A DNA stretch of 64,000 nt from Syntrophorhabdaceae bacterium. GTDB taxonomy: Bacteria > Desulfobacterota > Syntrophorhabdia > Syntrophorhabdales > Syntrophorhabdaceae. Position numbers and translations under genes: made by a program. Positions 8,392 through 25,620 of the stretch are shown piece after piece. Below the pieces are notes generated by a model, which did not search any database, was not told the DNA's origin, and saw nothing but the letters and a program-made list of their open reading frames with translations. Each line of letters begins with the position of its first letter. The stretch's first letter is position 1. Where the stretch lies: contig OY762209.1 of NCBI GenBank assembly GCA_963665295.1, positions 5,152,001 to 5,216,000 on the forward strand, read 5' to 3'.

Positions 8392-8407
8392 GCGCCGCCC
8401 CGCGATA

Positions 8408-8965: not shown

Positions 8966-9179
8966 TACAATATACCTCCCTTAAGATAATTAGTATGTCT
9001 CACCCCCTTTTGAAGCTTTCGGGGCCCGCACCAGTGTGCCCCACCAATGCGGACACGCTACAGAACATGGCCGTCCGGACCTTTGGTCACGCCATGTCTA
9101 CGCCTTCTGTTAGGAGGTGATATGCCGGATTATACTACTTCCGGCCGTCGATTGTACACAACTAAATACATCAGGGAAC

Positions 9180-9214
9180 CCGGGGGACACCCTTTGTATA
9201 CAGTTGTCCCCCGG
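9180..9214. terminator. GC-rich hairpin downstream of the hesB-like gene
   Basis: 10-bp perfect stem CCGGGGGACA/TGTCCCCCGG; weak U-tract. Confidence 0.45.
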
Positions 9215-9241
9215 TGATATACGGAAATACCTATGCCTGTC

Positions 9242-9553
9242 TTAGCAGCTACATGACCCGCATGTGTTTTTTTCTGTCAGTTTTGAGGTGATTTTGAATC
9301 CGCCGCCCGCTGCAGTCTCGACGAAATCGACTCCTATGGGATTCACTTCTTCAAGGAGCCCCTTGTTTACCAGGAAGGTTACGCCTTCCTCCTTGAAAAT
9401 TTCATCATCTTCTTTTGGCCCGTCCAGAGCCATCCCCAGTGAGGGGCCCGATCACCCGCCTCCTGCCATCAGAATCCTGATGGCGCTGTCAAGGTTCCTG
9501 TCTTTCAGGAAAGCCTTGATCATTTCACTCGCCTTCTCGGTAACCTGAAACAT
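9242..9553 (-). CDS. IscA/HesB-like selenoprotein (103 aa, Sec at codon 34)
   Basis: ATG 9553 with AAGGAG SD: MFQVTEKASEMIKAFLKDRNLDSAIRILMAGGG-UGA-SGPSLGMALD...CGSCSC. The TGA (9452-9454) is in frame at the conserved GGC position; hairpin TGGCTC-TGGAC-GGGCCA follows; TTGACA-N16-TATTAT promoter at 9611-9638. Confidence 0.85.
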
Positions 9554-9679
9554 ATCCCGCTCCTTGTCGTAAATTTGTCACCCCTGTGTGCAGTGACAGT
9601 GAATATAATAATAATACCTATTGGCAGTGCTTTGTCAATGCCCCCCTGTCACCCCCCGTAATACCAACGAAATCCTCCG

Positions 9680-11101
9680 TTATTCCTGACGGCGATGCGG
9701 GTGGTCAGGGGTCGGGCTTGAAGATGTGGCCAGTCGGCTGAAACGTCTCACAAAAAACGTGATGGACCACGCCAGTACCGGAGAAAGCCAGATGACCGCG
9801 GCAATCAGGTCATTCTCCGCCCACTCTCCGAGAATGGAATATCGAATGGTCACATGATAGGCGAGGAAGACCGCCCAACTCAGAACGAGTCCTGCCGGAC
9901 CGGCCGAGAAGGGAAGAAGGGCTGCAAGGTAAAGGGCGTACCATGGGTGAAGGGTGGGGGCAAGGAGGAGATAGACAAAAGTGACGAGATAGAGGGAATC
10001 CATCAGACCCGGGGCGACAGGACTTCCCTGTTGCCGTGTCCTTCTCCTGAACAGGATGGTAATCACCAGAATGAGCGCCACCGACAGGGAGGCAAGGACC
10101 ATCCTGGTTTGGCTGCCCGAATCGAGCAGGGTCCGGAGGGTACGAAAGGCGGCATTGGCGAACTCCCAGTTCTGGAGGTAGATACCCAGACTCGCGAGCA
10201 TATGACTCAGGTCGGGAAGGAAGGGGATGGAGAAGAGGGCCAACGCCGAAACACATCCTCCTGCGAGGTACAAGGGGGCGATTGCGGCACACAAAAGCAC
10301 GGGAAGATAGATAAGGGGAATCACTTTTACGAGTATGGAGAGGGCGACTGCCGCTCCCGCGCCTGAATGCAGGACAATCGTCTTCACCCGAGCCGTTCCC
10401 CGAAGGCCCTTTTTCAGGTCCGCCCCTTCGCCGGAGCGGATGACGAGGGCGACTGCCGCAAAAAGAAACAGGACTGCCGCCACGTCTATGTGACCCGACC
10501 AGGCAATCTCGATGATAGGGAGAGGGTGCCACGCATAAAGGACCGCCCGCCACACGGGCAGGTTCATAGTCCTAAGAAGCGCGATAATGACCATACACGT
10601 CGCCATGTCCAGGGTGACGAGAACGACCTTCAGGCCGCCATAGCCTTTCGCGAGGGCCGCCCCTGCGGCAAAGATCACCTGGGCTGCCGGCGGATAAATC
10701 GTGTGGAACAGGGGATGGTTGACCTTGTTCAGGATTGTCGCGCTCCATCCGTCAAAGGCAACGGATGCCGCGGGAGTCCGACTGTAGGGGTTGTTTCCGT
10801 GAAGGGTTTGCAGGCCATCCCACAGGTACCGGTAGATATCGTCGGAAAGCTGGGGCGCCTGGAGCACGAAAAGGAGACGGCAGGCAAGGGCGAAACCGAG
10901 AATGGCCCCGGGGGAGAGTTGTATCTCCTCTTTCCCGCCCCCATAGAAGAGGACCGCGAGGAGTATGACCGCCATGGCGGTAACGCCCACAAGGATGGGT
11001 ATTGACACAGGTACATCCCTGCGAAGGGCGAGAAAGAGGTAGTCCGCAAAGAGAAGTAACCCCACGACCCGCGGGAGGGCCGCCCTGCAACCGATTCTCA
11101 T
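9680..11101 (-). CDS. Polytopic GT-C fold glycosyltransferase (GT87/DUF2029-like)
   Basis: LSDDIYRYLWDG...NPY, TIYPP, YAWHPL..E..WSGH.D, HPWY motifs; many TM segments; TAATG coupling to the upstream gene. Confidence 0.75.
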   Translation of the reverse strand: MRIGCRAALPRVVGLLLFADYLFLALRRDVPVSIPILVGVTAMAVILLAVLFYGGGKEEIQLSPGAILGFALACRLLFVLQAPQLSDDIYRYLWDGLQTLHGNNPYSRTPAASVAFDGWSATILNKVNHPLFHTIYPPAAQVIFAAGAALAKGYGGLKVVLVTLDMATCMVIIALLRTMNLPVWRAVLYAWHPLPIIEIAWSGHIDVAAVLFLFAAVALVIRSGEGADLKKGLRGTARVKTIVLHSGAGAAVALSILVKVIPLIYLPVLLCAAIAPLYLAGGCVSALALFSIPFLPDLSHMLASLGIYLQNWEFANAAFRTLRTLLDSGSQTRMVLASLSVALILVITILFRRRTRQQGSPVAPGLMDSLYLVTFVYLLLAPTLHPWYALYLAALLPFSAGPAGLVLSWAVFLAYHVTIRYSILGEWAENDLIAAVIWLSPVLAWSITFFVRRFSRLATSSSPTPDHPHRRQE

Positions 11102-12585
11102 TACGCCTTCTCCGGCTCCCGTCCTGCGAAAAATTCCGTGAAGTCCATGCATATGACAAGGAGGAACCCGAAGGGAAAGACAAGGAGGAATGGAACGGCG
11201 AACCATGTATTTCTCGCCAGTGCATACCAGACAGGGAGCAGCGTGTACGCAAGGAAGAGGATGTTGATGAGGATATGGGAAAGGGGCCGCTCGCGATAGA
11301 GAAAAGAGAGGGCCGGCATCTTTCCCCGCCCCTTGATGGCGTATTTGGGGGTCCTGTCGAACACGCCGCCCTTCTTGAAGAGGCCCTTGAAAACGGAGAG
11401 GGCGATGCTCGGCGCAAGGCCGATGGAAAATACGGGAAGGACGAGAAGGGCGCGTAGGCGCACCCGGCGTTCCTGGTCCTTGCGATAGAGGGCAAAATAG
11501 AGAAGGATGGCGACGCTGCTCAGGATAAAGAGGGGCACGTCAATACGGATGATCTCGTGGGGTCCTATGGCGGTCCTTGCCAGAATCGTGGGGTAGAGGG
11601 TCAAGGTCACCACGGTTCCGAACACCCATCCGAGATTGGCGAGGAGATGGGCCACGGCCTCCAGCTTCACGGCCAAGGGGAGGCGGGCCCTGAGGAGGCG
11701 GGGCAGTATCTTTCTCGCCGTCTGTATCGAACCTTTCGCCCACCGCTCCTGCTGGCAACGGAACGATGACATGGTGACGGGCAATTCCGACGGCACCTCG
11801 AGGTCATCGAGGTAGCGAAACCGCCAGCCCGCAAGCTGGGCCCGGTAACTGAGGTCGAGATCCTCCGTCACTGTGTCGGCCTGCCAGCCTCCCGCCGATT
11901 CAATTGCACTCCGCCGCCACACGCCGGCGGTGCCGTTGAAATTGAAAAAGAGGTTCCTCCTGTACCTCACCCAGTGTTCAATTCCGAAGTGGGGGCCCAG
12001 AAGAAGGGACTGGACAGAGGTGAGCCACGAATGGTCCGTGTTCAGGAATCCCCATTTCGCTTGTACCATGCCGATATTCCCGTCATCGAAGCACGGTATG
12101 GTCCTGTGGAGAAACTCGGGAGAAGGGATGAAGTCGGCGTCGAAGACCGCGATGAATTCGCCTTTCGCAACCTCCATGCCGTGGCTGAGCGCCCCTGCCT
12201 TATAACCTCGCCTGCTGTTTCTGCGAATCACCTTCATATCGACGCCTTGCCCGGACCAGTAGGCCGCCCGTTCATCGACTATGAGGCCCGTGTCGTCGGT
12301 GGAATCGTCGAGGACCTGTATTTCGAGCCTGTTTCCGGGCCATTCCATGGCGGCGGCGGCGTCAAGAAGACGGGCCGCTACAAACCGTTCATTGTAGAGG
12401 GGTAGCTGAACGGTGACAAAAGGGGTGTCCTTCCACGAAAGCCCCTCCCCGTGACGGAGCGGTTCGACAGGCTCAAGCCTCTTCTCCCTGTACCAGTGGG
12501 AAAGGAGCCAGATCCGATGCAGCCCGTAGAGAGCGAGGCCGGAGATTGCGGCAAAATGGATCAGTACCCAATAATCGGAAATCAT
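11101..12585 (-). CDS. Cellulose-synthase-like GT2 glycosyltransferase
   Basis: TVQLPLYNE, VLDDSTD, KAGAL, FDADF, TEDLD, QQERWAKG (D,D,D,QxxRW); N- and C-terminal TM helices; GGAGG SD. Confidence 0.9.
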   Translation of the reverse strand: MISDYWVLIHFAAISGLALYGLHRIWLLSHWYREKRLEPVEPLRHGEGLSWKDTPFVTVQLPLYNERFVAARLLDAAAAMEWPGNRLEIQVLDDSTDDTGLIVDERAAYWSGQGVDMKVIRRNSRRGYKAGALSHGMEVAKGEFIAVFDADFIPSPEFLHRTIPCFDDGNIGMVQAKWGFLNTDHSWLTSVQSLLLGPHFGIEHWVRYRRNLFFNFNGTAGVWRRSAIESAGGWQADTVTEDLDLSYRAQLAGWRFRYLDDLEVPSELPVTMSSFRCQQERWAKGSIQTARKILPRLLRARLPLAVKLEAVAHLLANLGWVFGTVVTLTLYPTILARTAIGPHEIIRIDVPLFILSSVAILLYFALYRKDQERRVRLRALLVLPVFSIGLAPSIALSVFKGLFKKGGVFDRTPKYAIKGRGKMPALSFLYRERPLSHILINILFLAYTLLPVWYALARNTWFAVPFLLVFPFGFLLVICMDFTEFFAGREPEKA

Positions 12586-12598
12586 GGTCTGCCTCCGG

Positions 12599-13675
12599 TC
12601 AACCTTCGAAGTGGTGGAGGCGTTCCGGGCCGTTCCCGCAATATTTGCCGGCCTCACGATTCCCCGGCGACTCTACCTGGCCGAAACACCCGGAGCCTTC
12701 GCCCGCGGTGCAGGCAAAGCAATGGTCATCGAACCGGATGGGGATCACTTTCCGAAGCGCCATTTCCAGGTCACTCAAATGCAGGGGTCCCCCCTTATCT
12801 CCGGGCAAGGCCATCCCGACAGCCTGGTTGAAATCGCAGTTGTAAAGGTTCCCCGCCCAATCCACGTTGATAAGAGACCTGCACATGAGGAAAGGGAGGG
12901 TGGCGGGATTGAAAGTCTCCGCCAGGGTGCGCAGGTAGGTAGCCAGACCGCCCCGGGCAACGAGCTGACCCCGGAAACGGCCAACAGGGACATTAGTGAG
13001 GACGATAAGACGGGTGAAGCGGATGCCGAAGCCGGCCATAAGCTCCTGCCGGTACCGGGTCTCCAGGTCTTTCTGGGGGCCGGGAAGTGTGTCGCCCCCC
13101 GGGTTATAGACCAGAGTCAGTTCATGGCTATCTCCGTAGCCGAGGTCATTCAGTTTCCGCAGGACCGCAACAGACCGCTTGAAAACGCCGGTCCCCCGCT
13201 GCCGGTCAACGTTTTCAGGGGTAAAGCAGGGAAGAGATGCCACAAGGGCGAGATCATGGTCTCTATAGAATTCGGGAAGGCCTGTCATGCCCTTTTCTGT
13301 GGCGATGACCAGATTTGTCCTCACCGACCGCCGCATGCCCAGCCCGTCGGTCCCTGCGATGAGATAGGAGAAGTTCGGGTTGAGTTCGGGACATCCGCCG
13401 GTGATATCGAGGTCTATCCCCCCGTGTCTGCGAAGAAAAGCGACGGCCCCGTCAATAACCCCCTTGTCCATGATCTTCTCACCTTCCGGCGAGGCGCCAA
13501 CGTGGCAGTGGGCGCACGCAAGGTTGCACCGGTTACCCAGGTTGAGTTGCAAGGTGCGCAAGGTTTCAAACCGGGGAAAAGGGAGGTCTGTACTCCCTAT
13601 TCTCTCCCCGAAGCAAAAGGCGGGAAGCCGGGTAACATCGCCCGTCCCGGCGTGATCGGTAAGGTGAACTGACAT
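12599..13675 (-). CDS. arsS: Radical SAM/Cys-rich domain protein, ArsS-like (TIGR04167-type)
   Basis: TLQLNLGNRCNLACAHCHV, DITGGCPELNP, ASLPC, LVYNPGG, LMCRSLINVDW, CDFNQ, HCFACTAGEGSGC. Confidence 0.85.
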   Translation of the reverse strand: MSVHLTDHAGTGDVTRLPAFCFGERIGSTDLPFPRFETLRTLQLNLGNRCNLACAHCHVGASPEGEKIMDKGVIDGAVAFLRRHGGIDLDITGGCPELNPNFSYLIAGTDGLGMRRSVRTNLVIATEKGMTGLPEFYRDHDLALVASLPCFTPENVDRQRGTGVFKRSVAVLRKLNDLGYGDSHELTLVYNPGGDTLPGPQKDLETRYRQELMAGFGIRFTRLIVLTNVPVGRFRGQLVARGGLATYLRTLAETFNPATLPFLMCRSLINVDWAGNLYNCDFNQAVGMALPGDKGGPLHLSDLEMALRKVIPIRFDDHCFACTAGEGSGCFGQVESPGNREAGKYCGNGPERLHHFEG

Positions 13676-13707
13676 GAACGACTCCTTCAGGGGCTGCCAA
13701 GGCCCCG

Positions 13708-14223
13708 CTATTTTTTGTCACTGCATGGGTAAACAACGCCCAGGACTTTCTCTTCAAAGAGTATCCGACCGGGACGCCACGCGGTAAGACGGAGACGGCC
13801 GGCGGACTGCGCCGTATGGTTGCTCGGGACAAGCCATATTTTGCCGCGCCACAACCGCCATGTTCCTGTCAGGCCGAGTTCGCCCTCCTTATCGCTAAAC
13901 CCTTTCGCAAGAAGATCCCCCAAGGTTTCGCCGTCGTCGTGCCTCACCAGGGAATACCCCTTGAGGGGTTCCAGCTTCCGAGCGGTGAAGGTGAAGACGC
14001 CCGTACTCTCATCAAAAGAAAGGACACCTTTGGCTCCCCTGGAGACAACCTTCCATGTGGCCGGGTCTTTCGTATAGAGGTTCAGGGACTTCTGCGCGGT
14101 CCGGCTGCGGGCCGCCGGATCAGGAGGGCACTGGGGACCGCCCGACACGCGGCCCGGAGTGAAGGCGAAAAGCACCACGGAGACGAGGGCCCATCCCCAC
14201 AGGCGATGAGACAGGGTAACCAT
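13708..14223 (-). CDS. Exported hypothetical protein
   Basis: Signal-peptide-like N-terminus from ATG 14223; tightly packed in the operon; function not recognised. Confidence 0.65.
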   Translation of the reverse strand: MVTLSHRLWGWALVSVVLFAFTPGRVSGGPQCPPDPAARSRTAQKSLNLYTKDPATWKVVSRGAKGVLSFDESTGVFTFTARKLEPLKGYSLVRHDDGETLGDLLAKGFSDKEGELGLTGTWRLWRGKIWLVPSNHTAQSAGRLRLTAWRPGRILFEEKVLGVVYPCSDKK

Positions 14224-14233
14224 GCTCGTGCCC

Positions 14234-15097
14234 CTACCGGGAACCTCGTTTCTGCCACGCCGCCATTCCACCCTCGTAGTTGCGGGCCGTGGGCAACCCC
14301 CCCAGTTGGTGGACAAGCCACGCATAGCCCGACCGTATACCTCCATAGCAGTAATAGACCACAGGGCGGGAGGTATCGACTCCATGACTCACAAGAAGCT
14401 TCTTTACATCCGCGGGGGCGAGGGGCCGCCGGTCGCCTCCGCGGTAGAAGTCCTCCCAGGAGATGTGGATCGATCCCGGTATCTTCCCTTTCAGCCGTTC
14501 AAAGGTGGAGCGGACATCGACTATGACAGGGGACCCTTTTCCCTGCTCCAGGTCCTCGGTGGAAATGTCCAGTTCCGGCTTCAGACTGACTTTATAGCTC
14601 GCCTTGGCAACGGCTCTCTTCTCCGGCCCTTTCGCCAGAGGGAATTCCTGGGTACGCCACGCCTGAATGCCCCCGTTGAGAAGCCGGATGGGACCTTTAT
14701 GACCAAGCCACGAGAGGACCCACGCGTCCCACCCTTCGCCTCCCCAGCTCTTGTCGGCATCACCATAGACGACCACGGGCGTATTCTCGTCTATCCCAAA
14801 GGCTCCGAGGGCAAGGGCGAGCTCTTTAGGAGGAAAGACGCGGTACTCCACACCCGACGGGTCCGTCCGTGTATAGTTCTCCCAGCAAAAGGAGTGCGCT
14901 CCAGGTATGTGGCCTGCTTCCCACTCCGATCTCGGGCGTCCGTCCAGAACGACCCATCGCGACCGGTTCCCGTTTAGGGAGGCCGCATCGATGAGTCCCA
15001 GGTCAGGGGCAGGGGCGGCTCCCGCCGGGGCGAGGGTTCCCGCCGCAATTGTGAGGAGGATTGCCAGTGTGGCTGCAATGAGGGATTTGTTCAGCAT
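14234..15097 (-). CDS. Tandem-domain rhodanese/sulfurtransferase with signal peptide
   Basis: LDGRP...GHIPGA, VVVYGD, LLNGG, IVDVRS...IPGS, YCYGGIRS active-site loop, YEGGM..W; AGGAG SD. Confidence 0.85.
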   Translation of the reverse strand: MLNKSLIAATLAILLTIAAGTLAPAGAAPAPDLGLIDAASLNGNRSRWVVLDGRPRSEWEAGHIPGAHSFCWENYTRTDPSGVEYRVFPPKELALALGAFGIDENTPVVVYGDADKSWGGEGWDAWVLSWLGHKGPIRLLNGGIQAWRTQEFPLAKGPEKRAVAKASYKVSLKPELDISTEDLEQGKGSPVIVDVRSTFERLKGKIPGSIHISWEDFYRGGDRRPLAPADVKKLLVSHGVDTSRPVVYYCYGGIRSGYAWLVHQLGGLPTARNYEGGMAAWQKRGSR

Positions 15098-15111
15098 ACT
15101 TACTCCTTTTA

Positions 15112-15930
15112 TCATTTTTCCGCTCCCCTGCGAACAAAAGGACGAGCCAGGGAAATGGGATTCTTGTACCCTGGATTATCTTCTTCCAGCGCGGTATCCG
15201 CGCACCCTTCCCCCCGCCACAACTCCCGGCCGATGACCCAGAGTATCTTGGAGCCCGCACGGAGGACGCCGACCAGGGTGCGGCTTATTTTCGACTGTCC
15301 CGCAACCCTCACGTGATAGGGCAAGGGACACTCCACTGTCTTGAGATTTGCCCTGATCGCCTTGATCTGCATCTCCACCGTCCACCCGAAGTCCCTGTCG
15401 GTCATGTGCATGGCCATGAGCGCCCCCCAGGACACGGCCCTCATGGGGCCGAGGTCATGATATTCAACCCCCCAGAACAGGTCGATAAGGCGTGTGGCCA
15501 GCCAGTTTCCGAAACGCTGTTGCGGACTTAAGGCCTGTCTCGCGTCAGGCACTCTCCGGGCCAGGGCGAGATCGGCTTCATTATCAAGAAGAGGGCGAAC
15601 CAGAGTCGCGAGGTTCTCCACACCGTCACTGCCGTCCCCGTCGGCAAAAGCGACTATCCGGGGCGGGTCGTCTCTCAACGCGGCAATACCCGCGAGGCAC
15701 GCGCTTCCGTAACCGGGGGACCCTTCGAAGACCACCCGGGCGCCGTGGGAGCGGGCAATTTCGCCCGTCCCGTCCGTGGAGCCGTTGTCTACCACAATCA
15801 CCGTGCCGATCGAAGCAGGAACCCTTGACAGGACGGCGGGAAGCGACTGTGCTTCGTTGAGGGCGGGGATGATGAGCGCGATTCCATGAAGCGGGAACCG
15901 GGATAGGCCCTCTTGTAAGGCGTCACTCAC
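15112..15930 (-). CDS. GT2 glycosyltransferase, polyprenol-phosphate glycosyltransferase (DPM1)-like
   Basis: IIPALNEA, VVDNGSTDGT, GYGSAC, FADGDGSD, DLGPMRA, GWTVEMQIKA, R.AG.SKI; GTG start overlaps the upstream stop. Confidence 0.85.
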   Translation of the reverse strand: MSDALQEGLSRFPLHGIALIIPALNEAQSLPAVLSRVPASIGTVIVVDNGSTDGTGEIARSHGARVVFEGSPGYGSACLAGIAALRDDPPRIVAFADGDGSDGVENLATLVRPLLDNEADLALARRVPDARQALSPQQRFGNWLATRLIDLFWGVEYHDLGPMRAVSWGALMAMHMTDRDFGWTVEMQIKAIRANLKTVECPLPYHVRVAGQSKISRTLVGVLRAGSKILWVIGRELWRGEGCADTALEEDNPGYKNPISLARPFVRRGAEK

Positions 15931-17770
15931 CGGGGGCCTCCCCGGTCTTTCTACTCTTGAACCGTTTGTAGAACAAGGGAATGAGGGAAACAAGCACTAT
16001 CAACCCGACCCCGATGAGGGCCGCAGGTGAGACGCTCCCCCTGACGAGATCGAGAAGAGAACTGGAAAAGACGATAAAGGCGATACATGCGGGAAGCATG
16101 CAGATAAAGGTCGTTGCCACGTAATGAGTCAGTGGGACCTTGGTAAGGCCGAAAGCGTAGTTGACGAGATTGAAGGGAAACGCCGGGATGAGGCGCGCCA
16201 CGGCCACCGCCTTCCATCCATGTCTGGCTGTCTCTCTGTCCAGTCTTTCCCATTTGGGGCCGGAAAGCTTTTTAAGGACCCATTCCCTTGCCGCATACCG
16301 GGCCGTAAGAAAGGCGAGGGTCGCTCCCACTGTTGAACCGACAATAGTATAGACTACACCCCAGAAAGGACCGAAGAGGATGCCGCCTACAATGGTTATG
16401 GGTAGGCCGGGAAGGAAGAGGACGGGCGCGAGGGCATAGATGAGCATATAGATGGCGGGCGCGAGGCCGCCATACCCCGATATCAGGGCCCGCAGCCGGT
16501 CCTGTTGCAGGTAGTGCATCGCTCCCGACGCGTGGACGGAGATGATTGCCGCCGCGAGGACAATCACAAAAACCGCGAGCTTCCAGGGTCGTCTCGCGGG
16601 CCCCGCCTCGCCCGGTGTGAAGTTCCTTTCCCGTGTCGCCGCAAATCCCTCCATCCGGGAGTACGTCTTTTTGAGGCGAAGCCTGTTGAGGTACGTGAAG
16701 GGGGCTCGCGCCGCCTTGACCTTTCCCTCCAGGGCTTTTTCAGGTTCGAAGACGAGGTCGGCTACGTGGCTCGTTGCCGAGTGACTGCCAAGTGCGTTGA
16801 CGCACCCCGCACAGTAGGTGACCATTCGTCGTCCCCCCGCTTCTTTCTTGCGCATAAGTCCCCAATTTTCGGCCAGTTCCGGAGAGAGAAGATTGACTCC
16901 CCCGCCCTGGCCGCAACAGAGGGTTTCCCTGCCGCTGTGTTTCATCTCCTCCACGGTCAGACCAAGGCGTCTCAACAAACCACGCACCGCTTCGTGGGCC
17001 GGCTCAAGGTTCCGGGCCACACATGGGTCGTGAACCACCACCGTTCCCCGAAGGTCTCCGGTCATGGGTGTTCCGTTGTCCGCCAGGGCCTCATAGACGG
17101 TCTTCACCGCCGGCCCGTGATCGGGAGCGTTCAACATGTTATGGCAGTTGGCACACGCCACGAGGATTTCCTTCACCCCGTGACCGACAAGATACGCCAT
17201 CATTTCTTCGAGCATGGCCCGGGCGTGGCGCTCCCGTCCAAGGCTGTCGGAGGGCTTGGTACAGCAATCGAGGACAATGCCTGTCTTCGGGTCCGCTTTT
17301 CTCAGGGCGTCAAAGATTTGCTTTACCGCGGCGGGCCGCGAACCGGCGAGGCCGCAACCCGGAAAGAATACGGTGCTGCAGCCCTCGGGGAGCCCGTAGA
17401 AGGTGAAACGCCGGGATGTACCGAGTTTCTCGTAGGCAAGAAGCGGCTTATGTTCGTCGAAGGTTCCAAGGCCCCGGTCAACCGCTTCCCGCCGCATCTC
17501 AAGGAAGAGACCGCCGGGATCGATTCCCTTGGGACACAGATTGGCGCAAAGGCCGCAGAGGCTGCACTCAAAAGCACGGAGAAGGACCTTATCGCCCGAC
17601 CCGGCGAGTTCTTCGGCGATGGTCGCGGGGGTGCCGTACTTTTCGAGAAAAGCACATTCACCGACACAGATGTGACATTTCGTGCAGTCTGTCAGGGTGC
17701 GGTCAAGATGGGCCTGCAGAGGGCTCCGGTATGGGGTTGTGTTGGTCTCTCCTATCTCTGTCCTGTTCAT
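15923..17770 (-). CDS. Fusion of a 2x[4Fe-4S]/CCG-domain oxidoreductase subunit and a C-terminal TVP38/DedA (VTT) membrane domain
   Basis: CTKCHICVGEC, CSLCGLCANLCP, FPGC...DCC...CANC, HDPC...CCG...CAGC; then LPG.PIT..GG.LFGP..G, RLIP.FPFNLVNYAFGLT. Confidence 0.85.
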   Translation of the reverse strand: MNRTEIGETNTTPYRSPLQAHLDRTLTDCTKCHICVGECAFLEKYGTPATIAEELAGSGDKVLLRAFECSLCGLCANLCPKGIDPGGLFLEMRREAVDRGLGTFDEHKPLLAYEKLGTSRRFTFYGLPEGCSTVFFPGCGLAGSRPAAVKQIFDALRKADPKTGIVLDCCTKPSDSLGRERHARAMLEEMMAYLVGHGVKEILVACANCHNMLNAPDHGPAVKTVYEALADNGTPMTGDLRGTVVVHDPCVARNLEPAHEAVRGLLRRLGLTVEEMKHSGRETLCCGQGGGVNLLSPELAENWGLMRKKEAGGRRMVTYCAGCVNALGSHSATSHVADLVFEPEKALEGKVKAARAPFTYLNRLRLKKTYSRMEGFAATRERNFTPGEAGPARRPWKLAVFVIVLAAAIISVHASGAMHYLQQDRLRALISGYGGLAPAIYMLIYALAPVLFLPGLPITIVGGILFGPFWGVVYTIVGSTVGATLAFLTARYAAREWVLKKLSGPKWERLDRETARHGWKAVAVARLIPAFPFNLVNYAFGLTKVPLTHYVATTFICMLPACIAFIVFSSSLLDLVRGSVSPAALIGVGLIVLVSLIPLFYKRFKSRKTGEAPGE

Positions 17771-17778
17771 GTCTCTCC

Positions 17779-18624
17779 TCAGAAGAGCGATGTTTTGATG
17801 TACACGGCCAGGCTGAAGGTGCTGCCGGCCGATGTATTCTTACCATAAAGTTCCTTTATATACGAGCCCTCCAGTCCCCACGTCGGCCTCACTTTGTAAC
17901 CCAGGGCAAGATCGAGCTTGCCCAGGTCAAAATTATTCGTCGCCGTGGGATTGCCCCAACTTCCCATATTCGATCCGTTGTTGGCGCTTAAAGTCCCATC
18001 AAGCTTGGCCCTGCCGTAAAGCGGGGTTTTGCCGAAGTCCGAGCCGACTTCGGCGAGATAGCGGAACTCGTTTGACGGCGCTCCTGCCCGCCACCGATAC
18101 CCGGCCTCGATATTGCCGTAGCCCGGAATGAGAGGCCAGAAGGAGCGGCCGTAGAGCACTCTGGCTTCAAGATCATACTGGCCGTTGCCGAGCGGAAGAG
18201 CGTCGGTGCTGCCATAGAGACCCGGCACCTTGACGAGGACCTGCGTTGAAACAACGCCTTGTTTACCCTCAAGAAGCTTTATTCGGGCGCCGAGGTCGAT
18301 ATCGCCGAAACTCCTCGCGGCGAAATTGCCGCCCGTATAGTCGTTATGGAGCCATTTGTAGCTGAAGGAGGTGATGGCGGTGACGTAGTCGGTGATACCT
18401 ATCTCAAAATAATTACTGATGTTGCGGTCCTTGAACCTCCCATTGTTCGGGGTCCTTACCCGGTCTTTCGAAGAATCGAAGACATGGTCGGCATAGTAGT
18501 AGTTGAAGGCTATCTTCTCGTAGAAAACTCCCTTCGGCTGCGTCCAGGCGCCGGCAAATACGTTGGAAGAAAGGGCGGTAGCAAGGAGTAACATGACGAT
18601 AAAAGTTAACGAGGGTAATCTCAA
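17779..18624 (-). CDS. Putative outer-membrane beta-barrel protein
   Basis: Signal peptide ending FA-GAWTQPKG, alternating aromatic strands, GDIDLGAR, PLGNGQYDLE, C-terminal Phe; GGAGG SD with TTG start. Confidence 0.6.
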   Translation of the reverse strand: MRLPSLTFIVMLLLATALSSNVFAGAWTQPKGVFYEKIAFNYYYADHVFDSSKDRVRTPNNGRFKDRNISNYFEIGITDYVTAITSFSYKWLHNDYTGGNFAARSFGDIDLGARIKLLEGKQGVVSTQVLVKVPGLYGSTDALPLGNGQYDLEARVLYGRSFWPLIPGYGNIEAGYRWRAGAPSNEFRYLAEVGSDFGKTPLYGRAKLDGTLSANNGSNMGSWGNPTATNNFDLGKLDLALGYKVRPTWGLEGSYIKELYGKNTSAGSTFSLAVYIKTSLF

Positions 18625-18711
18625 CTTATTCCTCCAAGAATATACCGGGAAGGGCAGGCGGTGGTCCGCCCGTCCTTCCCGGCGGGTTCTCTTGCGTGGT
18701 CCCGTTCGGTC

Positions 18712-19773
18712 TTAAGGGGTTACCGCGGGATAAACTGTGGGATCCTGCCTGCTCCATTCACTCCAGGAGCCCTGATAATGCCTTACGGAGGTATAGCCGA
18801 GGCCAAGGAGGAGATGGGTTACATGAGCCGAGCGGAAACCACCCTCACAATAGGGAACGGCCGTCTTGTCCTTGGTTATCTCAAGCCCGGTAAACAGGGT
18901 GCGGAGGTCCGCCTCGCTCTTGAGTATCTTGATGGGCAATCCCGTGTCCGTATCGACAACCCCCGTGTCCGTGAATACATCTGTCCAGTTAAGGGCGACT
19001 GCATCGGGAATGTGGCCGCTCCTCGGGTTTCCCGACTTCACATCGGTGCCGGCATATTCACCCGGCGTGCGGGCGTCAACGAGCACGGTTCCCGTGACTT
19101 CACCGTTGACTACGGACAATACGTCGTATCTCGTAGCCAGGATATCCGCATAGGCGCTCAGGACGTAAGGCTTTGCGGTGGGATTGGGCGTCGGCAGGGT
19201 CGGGGTGGTGGTCAGATATTTCGCGCTCGTATTCTTGTCCACGAACTTCCATTTGGGAAAACCGCCGTCCATGTTATAGGCTTTCTGGTGACCATAGAGC
19301 TTGAGCGTCCAGACAAGCCGCGCCGACAGGCCCCAGTCGGCGTCGTCGGCATCGCCATAAGTGACGACGGTGGTGCTGGCCGATTTAATGCCCCAACTGT
19401 TCACCAGCTTGATAAACTCGGTGGGAGTCGGGGTCATGTAATGTATGATGGTCCCGTCGGTTCCCTCGGTTCTATTAACAAAATAGGTTGAACTGGGGAC
19501 ATTGATGGCCCCTTTGATGTGACCTGCGGCATATTTCGTGGCGCTACGGGTGTCGATAAGGAGAATTCCCCCCAGATGCGATTTTACCCATGCAGTGGTG
19601 ACGAAATATTTGCTGAACTGGGTGCTGAACTTCTGAGCCGGTGTTGCCCCTTTCTGTTCATACGTTTCGGAGCCGGACGCCGGTCCATCGGCCCTGACCA
19701 CGGGTATGAAGATCGATGAGAGCAGCATTAATACAGCAATAGGTACGATAACAAGACTGGTAACACGTTTCAT
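18712..19773 (-). CDS. Tandem-domain rhodanese/sulfurtransferase with signal peptide
   Basis: LIDTRS...GHIKGA, VVTYGD, MDGGF.KW, LVDARTPGEY.G, GHIPDA, YCEGGFRS, YQGSWSEW; AAGGAGG SD. Confidence 0.9.
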   Translation of the reverse strand: MKRVTSLVIVPIAVLMLLSSIFIPVVRADGPASGSETYEQKGATPAQKFSTQFSKYFVTTAWVKSHLGGILLIDTRSATKYAAGHIKGAINVPSSTYFVNRTEGTDGTIIHYMTPTPTEFIKLVNSWGIKSASTTVVTYGDADDADWGLSARLVWTLKLYGHQKAYNMDGGFPKWKFVDKNTSAKYLTTTPTLPTPNPTAKPYVLSAYADILATRYDVLSVVNGEVTGTVLVDARTPGEYAGTDVKSGNPRSGHIPDAVALNWTDVFTDTGVVDTDTGLPIKILKSEADLRTLFTGLEITKDKTAVPYCEGGFRSAHVTHLLLGLGYTSVRHYQGSWSEWSRQDPTVYPAVTP

Positions 19774-20259
19774 AAGCGCTTCCTCCTTATGTAATTGAAT
19801 GCCGTTACACCTGAATTTCACTGGCATTGCTCGCCTTGACGGAGATCCCGGAGCGGGCCCTGACCCGGCCCATGGGGAAGACCGGCGTGGTCACTTTTCA
19901 ATGCGTGCCCGGCCTCGACCCCGACCGGTGCTGCGGGCTCAGAAATAAAGTCGAGGAGATACAGAGGAGGTCCCTGTCGAAATCCGCACGGGCCACCGGT
20001 CAAATCAACATTTCATTCCCGCAGAAAGGCACGGCCTTCAAAAGCTCCTGTCTTTAGTTTGTTATTACTATCATAGGGTAGATGAATTAGTCAATAATTT
20101 ATTATTACTCTGATATACAAAATGAATCAGTAAACCGGGTAAATCAAAAAGCCTTATAGGAGGCCAATCGCCGTTGACTCGCGAAGGCCGGTTAATGTAG
20201 ATTAGAAATACGCCCGGCATCGAGGCGGCGCTCTCCAAAGGTAAGGAAAACAGAATACG

Positions 20260-21687
20260 GTGAAACTTCTCTTTCTCTCCTTCGACTACCTCACCCAACC
20301 ATTGGGGATCGCCACTCTTTCCGCGGCCCTTCATCAGGCGGGGCACCATGCCGAAGTTGCCTCCCTCGGCGATAAAACGCGACAGGAATCACTCTTAAGA
20401 GATTTCAAACCCCATATCCTCTGTCTCTCGCTGGTCACGGGTCAACATCCCCTGTTCCTTGAAAGGGCGCGGCAGATAAAGGCCGGGTACCCGCACCTTC
20501 TGGTGCTGGCCGGGGGTCCGCACCCCACCTTCTATCCGGAATGCATAGGAGAACCCTGCATCGACGCGCTCTGTCGGGGGGAGGGCGACGTTGCTTTGCC
20601 GGCCCTTGTCGATGCCGTGGACCGGACGGGCGCCATGCCGGAAAGCCTTGCAAACTGGTGGATCAAAGGGCATGACGGCTCCATTTCCCGTAGCCATGTC
20701 GCAGCCCTCGTCAATAACCTTGACCGCCTCCCCTTTCCCGACCGCGACATCTTCGACAGGGCTCGTCCGGGCCCCGCGCCGGTGACCGTCTTTGTCATGG
20801 CGTCGCGGGGCTGTCCTTTCAACTGCAGCTACTGCTTCAATCATGCGTACCGAAAGCTGTATCAGGGGCAGGGCGTCATGTGCCGCAGGCGGACCGTGGG
20901 CAATGTGATCGCCGAGATCAAAACGTTGCGGAAGCGCTACCCCTTGCAGATGGTGGTGTTCCAGGACGACACCTTCAACCTCGACAAGACATGGCTACGG
21001 GAGTTCGCGAAAGAATACGGGAGGGAGATAGACCTGCCGTTTCACTGCCATCTCCGTGCCGATCTTCTCGACGCCGAGACCGCGTACCTGTTGCGGCGGG
21101 CCGGTTGTCTTTCGGTCAAGCTCGGCCTCGAAGCCGGTCGCGAAGAGGTGCGTAACGGCATTTTGAAACGGGGCATGACGCTCCGGCAGTTCGAGAATGC
21201 CTGCACGCTGCTTACGCAGAGCGGTATCCGTCTTGCGACCGAGAATATTCTTGCAACGCCGGGCACAACCCTCGAAGACGACCTCTTCACCTATTCCGTC
21301 AACCGGCGCGTGAGGCCCCGGCACAGTTTTGCCACCCTCATGCAGATCTATCCGCGGACCGATATCGCCTCCTACGCCCTTGAGCACGGGTTTGCGGCTG
21401 CACCGGTTACGGATTTTCCCGCCACGTTCTACGAAGACTCGGCCGTCACCATCACGGATAAGGATAAGCGGGGCAGACTCCGGGCCCTCTTTGCCCTGGC
21501 CGTGAGCCTGAACCTGCCGCTCCGTGTGGTACGACTGCTGCTTGCACTGCCCTTCAGGGGAGTATATGAGTTTGTGGACCGGCTCTGGAAGGGGTACTGC
21601 CTGAGATTCCGCATCTACCCTTACACGCAAAGCATGGGAAGCTTTATGAGGGACGTGGGGAGCTACCTCCGGGGGAAATACTATTGA
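20260..21687 (+). CDS. Cobalamin-binding-domain radical SAM protein (class B-like)
   Basis: PLGIATLSA, GGPHPTF, RGEGD, LPFPDR, SRGCPFNCSYC, FQDDTF, GLEAG. Confidence 0.9.
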   Translation: MKLLFLSFDYLTQPLGIATLSAALHQAGHHAEVASLGDKTRQESLLRDFKPHILCLSLVTGQHPLFLERARQIKAGYPHLLVLAGGPHPTFYPECIGEPCIDALCRGEGDVALPALVDAVDRTGAMPESLANWWIKGHDGSISRSHVAALVNNLDRLPFPDRDIFDRARPGPAPVTVFVMASRGCPFNCSYCFNHAYRKLYQGQGVMCRRRTVGNVIAEIKTLRKRYPLQMVVFQDDTFNLDKTWLREFAKEYGREIDLPFHCHLRADLLDAETAYLLRRAGCLSVKLGLEAGREEVRNGILKRGMTLRQFENACTLLTQSGIRLATENILATPGTTLEDDLFTYSVNRRVRPRHSFATLMQIYPRTDIASYALEHGFAAAPVTDFPATFYEDSAVTITDKDKRGRLRALFALAVSLNLPLRVVRLLLALPFRGVYEFVDRLWKGYCLRFRIYPYTQSMGSFMRDVGSYLRGKYY

Positions 21688-21765
21688 CCCCGTCCTTCGG
21701 TTGTCCTCTCCGTGCCGCCCGGGGGCGGGCTCGACATATGTTCCGCAACAGGAAAGGGGTCACCA

Positions 21766-23127
21766 ATGGGCTTCGGTAGTCATATCCTCATATTCGCCCG
21801 ATACCCGGAGCCGGGAAAAGCCAAGACACGGCTTATTCCCGCCCTCGGGCCCGTGGGCGCGGCGCGGTTGCACCGGCGGATGACTGAAAAGGCGGTGGCC
21901 ACGGCGCGGGCCGGACTCGCGTCCTCCCGGGAAGTCGGTGCCCGCATACTGGTTTGTTGCACCGGGGCGCCTCCCGGCGCTTTCCGGGCGTGGTTGGGAG
22001 AGGACCTCCTTTACGCGGCCCAGCCTTCCGGGGACCTGGGCATCCGTATGGGCCGGGCCTTCAAGTCCGCCCTGCGCCATGGCGCGCCTGCCCTGGCCAT
22101 CGGTTCCGACGTGCCCGCCATAACCCCCGCGATCCTCGCTCAGGCCTTCGAAAGTCTGCATGATCATGATGTCGTTCTCGGACCGGCCGGGGACGGCGGC
22201 TATTATCTCATAGGGCTAAAACGCTTTAACCCGGAGTTGTTCTCAGGCATCGAGTGGGGAACGGGGGAAGTGTGGAATCAGACCTGCCACGTCCTTTCAA
22301 GGCAGGGACTGAAAGTTGCCCGGTTGCCGGTATTGAGCGATGTGGACCGCCCCCGGGACCTTCCCCCGCTGCGGGGCGATTCGCTCTTCGCGGACTGCTT
22401 CACGGGTAAAACACCACTTTCCATTGTCATCCCCACACTCAATGAGGCGGACGGCCTCGGCGGAGTACTCGAACGCCTTCATAAGGCAGCCGCCGCCCAA
22501 ATTATCGTGGCGGACGGCGGAAGCACGGATCAAACCCGGGAAATAGCCGCGCAGGCAGGCGCCCTTGTAATGGAAGTGCCGGGAGGCAGGGCCTGCCAGC
22601 AGAACGCCGGGGCGGCGGCTGCCGGCGGGCGCCTGCTCCTGTTCCTTCACGCAGACACGCTGCTACCCGAAAACTACGCCGACCTTATCCGGGAGACACT
22701 GGACAACCCTTCTATCGTGGCCGGGGCGTTCCGGTTTCAGACGGATGCTCCCGGTATGGCCATGCGCTTCATTGAATGGACCGCCAACCTGAGATCGGTC
22801 CTCATGCAGGCCCCATACGGAGATCAGGGTTTGTTCATGGAGAAGAGGGTGTTTCAGGAAATGGGCGGGTTCGCGCCTTTACCGGTCATGGAGGACTTTG
22901 ATCTCGTCCGCCGGCTCAGGCGCCGTGGCGCCGTAACAACCCTTCGCGCCGGTGCGGTCACCTCGGCGCGGCGCTGGCGGCAACTCGGTGTAATCCGCAC
23001 GACCGTGACCAACATGCTCATGGTGGGAGGTTTCTTTTGCGGCGTGCCGGTGGAAAAGTTGAGCCGCCTCTACCGGAAGGGCGGGGCCTCTCCCCCCGGC
23101 CCCGCCCCGAACGGCCCCGGTTCCTGA
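21766..23127 (+). CDS. Fused TIGR04282-type (DUF2064) and TIGR04283-type (GT2) rSAM/selenodomain-associated transferases
   Basis: N-half IFARYPEPGKAKTRL, GDLGIRM, IGSDVP, GPAGDGGYYLIG, DVDRP.DL; C-half SIVIPTLNEA, DGGSTD, LFLHADT, PYGDQGLF, MEDFD, TSARRW. Confidence 0.85.
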   Translation: MGFGSHILIFARYPEPGKAKTRLIPALGPVGAARLHRRMTEKAVATARAGLASSREVGARILVCCTGAPPGAFRAWLGEDLLYAAQPSGDLGIRMGRAFKSALRHGAPALAIGSDVPAITPAILAQAFESLHDHDVVLGPAGDGGYYLIGLKRFNPELFSGIEWGTGEVWNQTCHVLSRQGLKVARLPVLSDVDRPRDLPPLRGDSLFADCFTGKTPLSIVIPTLNEADGLGGVLERLHKAAAAQIIVADGGSTDQTREIAAQAGALVMEVPGGRACQQNAGAAAAGGRLLLFLHADTLLPENYADLIRETLDNPSIVAGAFRFQTDAPGMAMRFIEWTANLRSVLMQAPYGDQGLFMEKRVFQEMGGFAPLPVMEDFDLVRRLRRRGAVTTLRAGAVTSARRWRQLGVIRTTVTNMLMVGGFFCGVPVEKLSRLYRKGGASPPGPAPNGPGS

Positions 23128-23442
23128 GGAACCATCAGTCCTCCCGGCCCGGTATCCACCGGCCGCTTCACGTGTTTTCCTGAATGCCTGTGGATTTGTC
23201 GACTCAGTTCTGCTGAAGCTTTTCGCCAAACAAGGGAAATATCTTCCTATTCCGCTCATTAATAGATTTTCAAATGCTATAAAATGTATTATAATAGATA
23301 CAGAAACGTTAGACTGGGAAGTGTCGGGTTACGTTGGGAAAAGGCATAAAGACGGCGGCAGGAAAATCACAGGCCCATGTGGTAACCGATAATTCTGCGC
23401 TGAGGAAAGGAGAAAATCATCACCACCACTCGCTGTGATGAC

Positions 23443-25620
23443 ATGGAGAAGGAAGAGACCGGCGCAGCCCGGGTGAATGGCGTCGAGGAGACTGAGAAGG
23501 CCCTCAAGGAAAGCGAGAAGAATTTCCAGGCCCTTCTCAACGCGACCACCGACATGGCATTCCTTATGGACACGAAGGGCCTCATTCTTGCCGCGAACGA
23601 GAACACCGCCCGGGTGTATGATACCACCATGGATACCCTCATCGGCGCGTGTGTCTACGATTTCATGCCCGACCAGGCCGCCCAGAAGTCCATAGCGAAG
23701 GCGGAAGGGGCCGTCAAGTCCCGGATGCACGTACGGTTCCAGGGAAATCTCAGGGGAAAGATCTTCGACAACAGCATCTATCCTGTCTTTGATGAAAACG
23801 GCAACGTCACGAGGCTCGCGGTATACGGCAGGGATATCACCGAGGCCCAAAGGGTACAGGACGCCCTCCGGAAAACGGAGGAAAAGTACCGGAACATATT
23901 TCACAATGCCACGGAAGGCATATTCCAGATTTCACCCGAGGGACATTTCATAAGCGCGAACCCGTCTCTCGCCCGCATACACGGTTACGAATCGCCCGAG
24001 GAACTCATGAGTTCGGTGGCAAGCGTGACCACGCTTTACGTGCATCCCGAAAAACTTCTTGATTTCACGCGCCTTCTTCACCAGAAGGATCATGTGTCCA
24101 ACTTCGAGACCCAGATGCGCCACAAAGACGGCAGCATCCAGTGGATATTGATCAACGCCCGGGCCGTGAGGGATGAAGACGGGCGGATACTCTACCTCGA
24201 AGGCACCATGCAGGACATCACGGAACGGAAGAGCGCGGAAGAGGCCCTTGCGGAAAGCGAGGAGAGGTACCGGACGGCCATCGAACATTCCAACGATGGA
24301 GTGTCCATCATCAAGGGCGATACCCATCTTTATGTGAACAGACGGTTCGTCGAGATGTTCGGCTACGACCGCCCTGAGGATATCGTGGGGAAACCCATAG
24401 AGATCACCGTCCATCCCGACGACGTGGCCATGGTCAAAGAGATCAACCTGCGCAGGCACCGCGACGCACCCAATCCGTCACGTTACGAATTCAAAGGCGT
24501 CACGCGGGACAAGAAGATTATTTACGTGGAGGTTTCCGCCACCAATATCACCTACCGGGGGGCGCCGGTTTCTCTGGTCTACCTGAGAGATATTACCGAG
24601 AGGAAACGCGCTGAAGAGGCGCTCAGGCAATCGCACCTCGAACTGGAGAGGCTCAACAGTGCAAAAACCAAGGCGGTGAACCACATCTCTCATGAGTTGA
24701 AAACCCCCCTTGCCGTGGTCCAGGGCAACATACGGATCCTTAAACGGAAGATCGAGAGTACTTCCTTTGCTGAAGGGGTACGGGGTAATATCGAGGTCCT
24801 CGAACGAAATCTCGAAAGGCTTTTCAGCATCTCGAAACAGACCGACGAGATCTTCCGCGTATCTCAGGAATTGGAGGCCGGGGTCGTTCTGAGCGACCTT
24901 GACCGTCTATGGGAAAGAATGGAAGGCTTTCCGGAAATGCCTCCCGAGGTACGCGCCGACTGGTCTCGCGTAAAAAGATGGATCAGCCGGTACATGTCCG
25001 GCAGCCCCCTCTCCTTTCAGTCCATCGACCTCTATCCTTTCCTCCAGTCCCTGGTGGAGAAGGTGAAACAGAAAGCGCGCCACAGGAAGATCAGGTATGT
25101 CGTCGAGGGGGAGAACGATCTCTACGTCTTCATGGAGCCCGATATCCTGGGCGACGTGCTCGAGGGACTTCTCAAGAACGCCATAGAGAATACCCCTGAC
25201 GGGGGCGTCATCAAGGTCGTGGCGGACCAGAAGGACGAGACCATTTTGGTCCACGTCACGGATTACGGCGTGGGGATCGTGAAAGAAAACATCCAGTATC
25301 TTTTCGACGGTCTCTTCGATACCCGTGAGACGGACCTCTATACGTCCAGGAAACCCTATGATTTCGGGGCGGGAGGCAAGGGATTCGACCTTCTCCGGAT
25401 AAAGATGTACGGGAAACGGTTCGGTTTTGACCTCTCCGTGGAGAGTTGCAGATGTAAATATATCCCTCACGACCAGGACCTGTGCCCCGGCGATGTCGCC
25501 GAATGCACCCTTTGCCGCACCCCGGAGGACTGCACGGAAAGCGGAGGGTCCACCTTTACCATCTCTTTTCCCCCTGAAGCGAAGAGAAAACAGGAAATGG
25601 CCGCCGGAGGACTGCTGTAG
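23443..25620 (+). CDS. Soluble sensor histidine kinase with three PAS domains
   Basis: Three PAS/PAC units ending DITE; SHELKTPL H-box; KNAIENTP N-box; DYGVGI G1 box; Cys-rich C-terminal insertion. Confidence 0.9.
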   Translation: MEKEETGAARVNGVEETEKALKESEKNFQALLNATTDMAFLMDTKGLILAANENTARVYDTTMDTLIGACVYDFMPDQAAQKSIAKAEGAVKSRMHVRFQGNLRGKIFDNSIYPVFDENGNVTRLAVYGRDITEAQRVQDALRKTEEKYRNIFHNATEGIFQISPEGHFISANPSLARIHGYESPEELMSSVASVTTLYVHPEKLLDFTRLLHQKDHVSNFETQMRHKDGSIQWILINARAVRDEDGRILYLEGTMQDITERKSAEEALAESEERYRTAIEHSNDGVSIIKGDTHLYVNRRFVEMFGYDRPEDIVGKPIEITVHPDDVAMVKEINLRRHRDAPNPSRYEFKGVTRDKKIIYVEVSATNITYRGAPVSLVYLRDITERKRAEEALRQSHLELERLNSAKTKAVNHISHELKTPLAVVQGNIRILKRKIESTSFAEGVRGNIEVLERNLERLFSISKQTDEIFRVSQELEAGVVLSDLDRLWERMEGFPEMPPEVRADWSRVKRWISRYMSGSPLSFQSIDLYPFLQSLVEKVKQKARHRKIRYVVEGENDLYVFMEPDILGDVLEGLLKNAIENTPDGGVIKVVADQKDETILVHVTDYGVGIVKENIQYLFDGLFDTRETDLYTSRKPYDFGAGGKGFDLLRIKMYGKRFGFDLSVESCRCKYIPHDQDLCPGDVAECTLCRTPEDCTESGGSTFTISFPPEAKRKQEMAAGGLL

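Follow-up and report, generated by a model that had tools for sequence, protein, structure and literature searches.

An ArsS-containing gene cluster of a Syntrophorhabdaceae bacterium: a conserved envelope glycosyltransferase module with an exchangeable radical SAM slot and a possible role in arsenosugar-type glycoconjugate synthesis

The presence of an ArsS-family radical S-adenosylmethionine (SAM) enzyme among envelope-type glycosyltransferases and sulfurtransferases raises the question of what such a locus makes and whether arsenic is part of it. The locus lies in a 64,000-nt stretch of a Syntrophorhabdaceae bacterium genome (assembly GCA_963665295.1, contig OY762209.1, positions 5,152,001 to 5,216,000 of the forward strand), hereafter the window, and occupies window positions 9680-23127. 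The initial annotation had described it as an 11-gene cluster built around ArsS, a candidate undescribed pathway for an arseno-, thio- or seleno-sugar of the envelope. All 11 open reading frames (ORFs) were located, in the order and orientation described: nine run leftward on the minus strand from 19773 to 9680, and two rightward on the plus strand from 20260 to 23127. The eight leftward junctions, counted from plausible starts, measure 87, 8, -8, 14, 10, 32, 13 and -1 nt, in agreement with the tight or overlapping spacing reported before. In two public runs, either of which is a possible source sample and neither of which is independent of the assembly, a single contig covers the region 8025-25500 without a difference, so that the cluster is not an assembly artefact. 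Comparison with related loci indicated that the conserved core is an envelope module, in which three glycosyltransferases are kept most constantly, whereas the enzyme in the radical SAM slot varies.

The radical SAM enzyme of the leftward arm (12599-13675) carries Radical_SAM and DUF3641 domains (PF12345, E 3e-44) and scored 363.5 bits on TIGR04167 against a cut-off of 300, as expected of the ArsS-like protein that it had been called. Its Cys motifs, CxxxCxxC (CNLACAHC) and the C-terminal YNCDFN and CFACTAGEGSGC, are intact and are common to the cyanobacterial ArsS proteins encoded beside arsM, to which it is 37-41% identical and from which it forms a separate clade. It is the Cys form and not the selenocysteine form; a TGA codon is present in other ArsS sequences. 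No solved ArsS structure was found. The second gene of the rightward arm (21766-23127, ORF open from 21712) encodes, in a single 471-aa ORF, a TIGR04282 domain (DUF2064, CofC-like; 206.7 bits, cut-off 134) together with a TIGR04283 glycosyltransferase family 2 (GT2) domain (242.9 bits, cut-off 182), so that the fusion proposed earlier is real. Both families are named arsenosugar biosynthesis glycosyltransferases in NCBIfam.

Three further glycosyltransferases are encoded in the leftward arm. The product of 9680-11101, whose start at 11101 abuts the upstream stop within an ORF open to 11206, has about 11 hydrophobic segments and gave zero Pfam or NCBIfam hits itself. A profile of 13 orthologues matched GPI mannosyltransferase 1 (E 7e-5), four of the 13 members matched GT87, and an LSDDIYRY loop is conserved across all 13 aligned sequences. 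The protein thus likely belongs to the GT-C fold class, its placement in the GT87 or the PIG-M family being unsure; of the family assignments proposed before, VTT and CCG held for another protein of the window (see below), and GT87 held on those four orthologues and not on the window's GT-C protein. Immediately 3′ of the BcsA-like gene, the compared loci L173, L175, L176 and L177 (L-numbers denote such loci) encode a GT-C joined in one protein with a TIGR04283-like GT2 domain. In the GT2 at 11101-12585, the D, DxD, TED and QxxRW motifs are present, as are C-terminal membrane segments; its nearest PDB match is BcsA (E 5e-24), it scored 112.5 of 699 bits on the CelA equivalog and so failed that cut-off, and judged by its motifs it may work like cellulose synthase. 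The third enzyme (15112-15930) is a soluble DPM-synthase-like GT2 and a predicted polyprenyl-phosphate glycosyltransferase, for which the best NCBIfam match was AglJ (96 of 325 bits) and a PDB sequence search gave no match. A lipid-carrier route with a periplasmic GT-C step, as suggested initially, is the natural reading of this trio.

Two further leftward genes, at 14234-15097 and 18712-19773 (ORF open to 19827), encode two-domain rhodaneses, each with a hydrophobic, signal-like N-terminus and, in the C-terminal domain, a Cys within a CxxGxRS loop (CYGGIRS and CEGGFRS, respectively); we take CxxGxR to mark the active-site loop of rhodaneses. Most tandem rhodaneses of related loci share both features. 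Both window proteins are likely exported to the periplasm and are predicted sulfurtransferases, the export call for cluster proteins being based on hydropathy and inspection by eye. A link to the Geobacter rhodanese GSU2940 was dropped, as the accessible part of PMC10599522 shows no tie to the operon. Beside the module, a cystathionine lyase pair (L134:10565-12948, G015) and an O-acetylhomoserine sulfhydrylase (L159:16274-17665, G201) were seen. The gene at 15923-17770 encodes a CCG (HdrD-like) redox domain with two [4Fe-4S] clusters (CCG and Fer4 matches), fused to a VTT/DedA domain. For the predicted outer-membrane beta-barrel (17779-18624), the structure model (predicted local distance difference test score, pLDDT, 88) matched 4rl8 in Foldseek (E 1e-10, TM 0.70) and FapF (E 2e-9), at 12% identity to the solved COG4313/FapF structures, which upholds the barrel proposed earlier as one of COG4313/FapF type. 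The likely exported 171-aa protein (13708-14223) has nine close homologues besides itself; in searches with its model (pLDDT 70), Cu/Zn-superoxide dismutase (SOD) folds filled the top 15 rows (best match Z 10.5, root-mean-square deviation 3.0, 103 aligned residues), so that a Cu/Zn-SOD-like beta-barrel fold is predicted. Among 16 sequences of this family no His is invariant, so that the conserved metal ligands of Cu/Zn-SOD are lacking; the ESM Atlas returned unnamed clusters only.

The first rightward gene (20260-21687) encodes an enzyme with B12-binding and Radical_SAM domains, which scored 90 of 481 bits on its best named family and 32 of 450 on ArsL, and passed no NCBIfam cut-off (BchE, HpnJ, PhpK, ArsL and others). 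About 70 proteins cluster closely with it at ≥54% identity and form an unnamed module-linked subfamily; the enzyme is a candidate methylase, the same domain layout occurring also in non-methylases. A second B12 radical SAM type, 23-24% identical to that of the window, lies between the BcsA-like GT2 and GT-C genes in L252:12068-13486, L258:8556-10001 and L259:8571-10001. The B12-type protein encoded in L256 gave no NCBIfam match at E 1e-20, and its supposed link to ArsL was therefore abandoned.

Next, the conservation of the cluster was determined across genomes, numbered G, with G000 the source genome of the window and G015 that of a relative. With ArsS as bait, the module was found at 1 of 80 loci, and it surfaced only with the BcsA-like GT2 as bait. 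This module consists of the periplasmic rhodaneses, COG4313-like barrel, CCG-DedA protein, DPM-like GT2, SOD-fold protein, BcsA-like GT2 and GT-C. Orthologues of the BcsA-like protein were detected in 2 of 41 genomes of its own kin (G000 and G015), 22 of 251 genomes of the phylum sample, 28 of 201 of the order of G201, where named barrel homologues come from Geobacter, Geotalea and Oryzomonas, and 25 of 121 of the class of G283 (Bacteroidota). In G015, whose locus yields the same hits as L053 and is counted once, the leftward genes stand in the same order at 53-81% identity, with extra rhodaneses, and the B12 enzyme is 78% identical to that of the window.

The 20 phylum loci represent 19 of the 20 other genomes, with G186 excluded and G245 contributing two, and in several cases stop at contig ends. 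They contain GT-C at 13, the DPM-like gene at 12 (plus one partial), the barrel at 10, a tandem rhodanese at 10, CCG at 5, a NapH-like ferredoxin at 4 and TIGR04282 at 8; their radical SAM genes are a BioB-like enzyme at three loci, a fusion of radical SAM, ArsM and DUF5714 domains at two, ArsS at one and an orthologue of the B12 enzyme at one. For 20 loci of the G201 order that were chosen for long contigs, with the gene order mostly as in the window, the counts are DPM-like 20, GT-C 19, rhodanese 19, barrel 18, VTT 17, exported protein 16 and CCG 13, together with ArsS at four (three in the window's slot: L243, L245 and L247), TIGR04282/04283 at one and ArsM at none. The 20 Bacteroidota-class loci carry the DPM-like gene (17), GT-C (11), NapH-like ferredoxin (6), ArsM (2, adjoining the BcsA-like gene), ArsS (1) and no tandem rhodanese. 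The genes are therefore co-conserved, as had been supposed, but the cluster is not built around ArsS, which is present at 4/20, 1/20 and 1/20 of the G201-order, phylum and Bacteroidota-class loci, with different radical SAM enzymes standing in for it elsewhere: the occupants of the slot are ArsS, the BioB-like enzyme, the radical SAM-ArsM-DUF5714 fusion, SPASM enzymes and B12 enzymes. In a quick tree, the ArsS proteins encoded at module loci come from four or more separate clades (the window and slot group, L241, L160 and L224).

Several variants of these loci were observed. The operon of L241 has an insertion (11190-16435) that separates the DPM-like gene from the rhodanese and comprises TIGR04169, an ABC uptake system and an ArsS from a different clade. 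In one branch of the module (L165, L171 and L172), rhodanese-YdjY fusion lipoproteins recur with a small unnamed protein, a NapH-like ferredoxin replacing the CCG protein. The source genome has its own BioB-like radical SAM protein, 64% identical to the module type and in an unrelated context. We presume a likeness to the E. coli ydjXYZ-ynjABCDE genes, for which the literature search gave nothing related.

Although divergent in the window, the two arms form one system, as had been assumed initially, because L258 and L259 carry ArsS, TIGR04282 and the B12 orthologue in a co-directional envelope operon: on one strand lie barrel, CCG-VTT, DPM-like GT2, rhodanese, exported protein, ArsS, BcsA-like GT2, TIGR04282, the second B12 enzyme and the B12 orthologue (74-76% identity), with GT-C next in L258. 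These are two of six metagenome loci with the B12 orthologue (L257-L262), five of which show adjoining module genes; GT-C adjoins it in L260-L262, and L257 is a 2-kb piece bearing the B12 orthologue alone. In G112 the orthologue (54%) directly follows GT-C in a module with a BioB-like radical SAM gene. Together with L258-L262, this rules out that the B12 enzyme is an unrelated neighbour.

At the genome level, TIGR04282 is present in 21 of 22 module genomes vs 101 of 229 others among the 251 phylum genomes (p 1e-6, a value that, like the other co-occurrence p-value here, is too strong since kin are not independent); the only module genome without it, G241, has the weakest BcsA-like hit. The radical SAM-ArsM-DUF5714 fusion occurs in 9 of 22 module genomes vs 9 of 229 others, with a query that was taken from a module genome and chosen after the fusion had been sighted there. 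In L161 and L169 the fusion gene is part of the module itself, and in L196, L199 and L202 it adjoins TIGR04282/04283; its ArsM domain has the Cys motifs of that family, and only 2 of the 18 fusion genomes also have ArsS. The fusion looks like a one-protein substitute for ArsM plus ArsS. The protein (L169:6426-9476 in G049; also L161/L194, L195-L200 and L202) is a 1,000-aa radical SAM/SPASM, ArsM-like methyltransferase and DUF5714 polypeptide found in 18 of 251 phylum genomes, 18/18 of which have TIGR04282, with TIGR04282/04283, VTT and a MerA-like flavoprotein as frequent neighbours. In the order of G201, ArsS occurs anywhere in the genome in 27 of 28 module genomes vs 125 of 173 others, and TIGR04282 in 27 of 28; the module genome lacking ArsS has a BioB-like radical SAM gene and TIGR04282/04283 inside the operon (L248). 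The idea that ArsS is irrelevant, being rare in cis, is weakened by its presence in trans in these 27 genomes.

The source genome encodes a second ArsS away from the window (406 bits; C1:4958423-4959319, L039), the native copy, which lies beside a TIGR04169 peroxidase-like gene and an OMP_b-brl barrel gene; a second TIGR04283-04282-VTT set lies at C1:3.364 Mb, 1.6 Mb from it. In two quick trees, which were midpoint-rooted and in effect unrooted, the window and G015 ArsS nested among Geobacteraceae/Desulfuromonadales sequences (support 96-98), and the native ArsS fell in a separate clade (support 99-100). Because of this placement and the patchy spread of the module, the window ArsS, which groups with Geobacteraceae-type enzymes, was likely acquired laterally. 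Elsewhere in the genome, one Acr3-like SBF match and three nucleoside phosphorylase matches were found. The best ArsM-like matches of the genome scored 138 bits on NF008823 (cut-off 263) and 43 bits on NF038099 (cut-off 400); in the 138-bit hit an in-frame TGA stands where one Cys is expected, and two further Cys of the motifs that we take to define ArsM are missing. An ArsM-like methyltransferase with an in-frame TGA within a WLA-U-ISG motif (G000:C1:5022802-5023383; L040:8893-9486, minus strand), without two cysteines that are usual in ArsM, is likely a selenoprotein. Eggerthellaceae ArsS proteins (L117:8960-10969 and eight similar loci) carry a 370-aa N-terminal extension, without a Pfam or NCBIfam match at the thresholds used, and are followed by an unnamed 500-550-aa gene.

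What, then, might the cluster make? The direct observations are the gene content, families, motifs, co-conservation and the genome-level TIGR04282 link; building on them, we tentatively propose, with confidence somewhat short of even, that the 11-gene system makes an arsenosugar-type ribosyl unit in the cytoplasm, which is activated, loaded onto a lipid carrier and transferred to a glycan or glycolipid outside the inner membrane. In outline, the pattern fits three stages: synthesis of a modified ribosyl unit by a radical SAM enzyme, its activation and transfer by TIGR04282/04283, and lipid loading and delivery to an outer acceptor by the module. Without ArsM, a methylated As(III) acceptor could come from the B12 radical SAM enzyme, were it a methylase, or enter the cell through the barrel. 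ArsS would add a 5′-deoxyadenosyl radical to dimethylarsenite, as established for the cyanobacterial enzyme and expected here from family membership. A nucleoside phosphorylase encoded elsewhere would strip the adenine, and the CofC-like TIGR04282 domain would activate the sugar phosphate. TIGR04283 and the DPM-like GT2 may load the unit onto polyprenyl phosphate, the DedA domain flipping or recycling the carrier, and the periplasmic GT-C may transfer it to an acceptor made by the BcsA-like GT2. The periplasmic rhodaneses, perhaps supplied by the CCG Fe-S domain, would adjust the substrate or product in its sulfur or redox state. Our best guess for the element is arsenic, since in the characterised case ArsS adenosylates dimethylarsenite, DMAs(III), and since ArsS of at least four clades, ArsM and the ArsM fusion recur at the module. 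A more specific version, an organoarsenical pathway of anaerobes in which the B12 subfamily methylates arsenic independently of ArsM, ArsS adenosylates it, and GT-C displays a (thio-)arsenosugar glycoconjugate on the envelope, the radical SAM slot being swapped to alter the sugar, we regard as improbable in its entirety.

Several observations weigh against an arsenic-containing product. No ArsM above cut-off was found in a profile search of the source genome, which agrees with the claimed lack of arsM, in cis and genome-wide; an arsM-less ArsS locus is, however, the usual case, an arsM-like neighbour having been seen at only 11 of 80 ArsS loci, many of them short. ArsS is missing from 16/20 G201-order, 19/20 phylum and 19/20 Bacteroidota-class loci, most module loci have no arsenic gene in cis, and ORF clusters of module loci show no recurring arsenic-resistance gene. 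In the phylum, ArsS is not enriched in module genomes (8/22 vs 84/229, p 1), and G159 has the module without ArsS, the fusion or any ArsM-like match at E 1e-35. ArsS is present in 92 of 251 phylum genomes, mostly module-free, and its substrate in anaerobes may therefore not be arsenic. The B12 orthologue occurs at 0 of 20 G201-order loci, three of which have ArsS in the same slot, and so ArsS does not need the B12 enzyme in cis. In G015, the fused TIGR04282/04283 gene is truncated with the rest intact, a whole TIGR04282 lying elsewhere in that genome.

An explanation without metalloid we consider unlikely but credible: the module would build an envelope glycan or glycolipid, the swappable radical SAM enzymes and TIGR04282 would make a deoxy, methylated or adenosyl-derived sugar, and the "arsenosugar" family label would stem from one cyanobacterial case. 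The variety of enzymes in the slot, the occurrence of the glycosyltransferase trio without ArsS or ArsM at most loci and the failure to find ArsM in G000 or G015 fit it; against it stands that two recruited partners are arsenic-linked, namely ArsS and an ArsM domain with its Cys motifs, and that ArsM lies inside or near the module loci L224, L231 and G275.

Among the accessory functions, sulfur gives the strongest signal in this phylum, and a sulfur (or selenium) version, rather unlikely in our estimate, would have the rhodanese persulfide enter the product to give a thio-sugar or thio-arsenosugar on the envelope. Consistent with it, tandem rhodaneses with an intact Cys loop are present at 19/20 G201-order and 10/20 phylum loci, Cys/Met pyridoxal phosphate-dependent lyases stand next to the module in G015 and G201, and the CCG domains are of the heterodisulfide-reductase type. 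The rhodaneses have signal-like N-termini and ArsS has none, which makes direct donation to ArsS unlikely, and tandem rhodaneses are absent from all 20 Bacteroidota-class loci, where the glycosyltransferase trio is nonetheless found; since they are apparently exported and missing there, sulfur more likely acts on an outside substrate or product than at ArsS. The selenium option raised initially has no support in the window, none of the 11 genes having an in-frame TGA as selenocysteine codon. Finally, that an ArsS cassette and an exopolysaccharide operon were merely joined in a transferred block and work separately is very improbable: the presence of the module in only 2/41 relatives, gene G+C contents of 0.54-0.64 vs 0.547 for the genome, the nearby transposase and the divergent arms would suit such chance neighbours, but L258 and L259 carry these genes in a single direction, which largely refutes them, ArsS takes the same slot in L243, L245 and L247, and the TIGR04282 link holds at genome level.

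The surroundings of the cluster are unremarkable. The left flank carries an IS1380 family transposase (4710-6233, 3.4 kb off the cluster's left end), an acetolactate synthase and an acetate transporter, and the right flank a PAS histidine kinase. The divergent intergenic region (19774-20259) has weak sigma-70-like sites (9/12) on both strands, which are no evidence of function. An Rfam scan of the window gave zero matches, and a look-up of RNA data sets listed none containing the stretch.

The literature searched, which excludes subscription papers and supplements whose neighbourhood figures could include some of the cluster, yielded neither a description of it nor an account of the steps that follow ArsS, and to this extent the term undescribed holds. 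The parts covered of PMC13598754, PMC12159101, bioRxiv 10.1101/2022.09.23.509062, PMC13188914, PMC13077682 and bioRxiv 10.1101/2024.02.01.577332 assign the first two steps of arsenosugar synthesis only (ArsM and ArsS). New here are the module-tied B12 subfamily, the TIGR04282 dependence, the alternation of ArsS with the ArsM fusion, fold predictions for two unnamed proteins, and a likely transfer into a genome with a second ArsS. Returning to the arsenosugar-type unit proposed above, the cluster gathers candidate enzymes for activating it, loading it onto a lipid, flipping it and transferring it outside, all of them late steps of arsenosugar synthesis, together with a possible ArsM-replacing methylase. 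The genome-level TIGR04282 dependence and the radical SAM swapping provide a testable model for a widespread ArsS gene set in anaerobes, and if arsenic does end on the envelope, this would be an overlooked arsenic sink in anoxic sediments and digesters.

Compared with known systems, the closest parallel is the cyanobacterial arsM-arsS pathway (Synechocystis; Xue et al., 2019; Cheng et al., 2021, as cited in PMC12159101, PMC13598754 and bioRxiv 10.1101/2022.09.23.509062), in which, according to the portions of these three sources covered, ArsS adenosylates DMAs(III) to 5′-deoxy-5′-dimethylarsinoyl-adenosine (DDMAA). The window shares with it an ArsS above cut-off with the same Cys motifs, TIGR04282 and TIGR04283, and a VTT domain, which is also found near cyanobacterial ArsS (L116 and L126); it differs in having no arsM in cis and none above cut-off in the genome, and in adding a B12 radical SAM enzyme, three envelope glycosyltransferases, two exported rhodaneses, a CCG domain, a barrel and a SOD-fold protein. 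Xanthomonas xagABC, as far as covered in PMC3609779, resembles the cluster in a polymerase-like GT2 gene in the operon and in that one source automatically labels barrel homologues "protein XagA"; the likeness to XagA comes from this label only, and the modelled barrel fold is COG4313/FapF. The common ArsS cassette of the phylum consists of ArsS, TIGR04169, VTT, a MerA-like flavoprotein, DUF3047, DUF547 and TIGR04282/04283; the window has ArsS, VTT and TIGR04282/04283, and the genome's first ArsS stands with TIGR04169. Absent from the window are TIGR04169, the flavoprotein, DUF547 and DUF3047, and the envelope module is an addition to what the cassette contains. General envelope glycosylation by polyprenyl phosphate and GT-C enzymes employs a DPM-type GT2, a flippase and a GT87 or PIG-M transferase. 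The window matches this scheme in its DPM-like GT2, its DedA/VTT domain and its GT-C with a conserved DD loop, and departs from it in coupling these to a BcsA-like GT2, rhodaneses and radical SAM enzymes.

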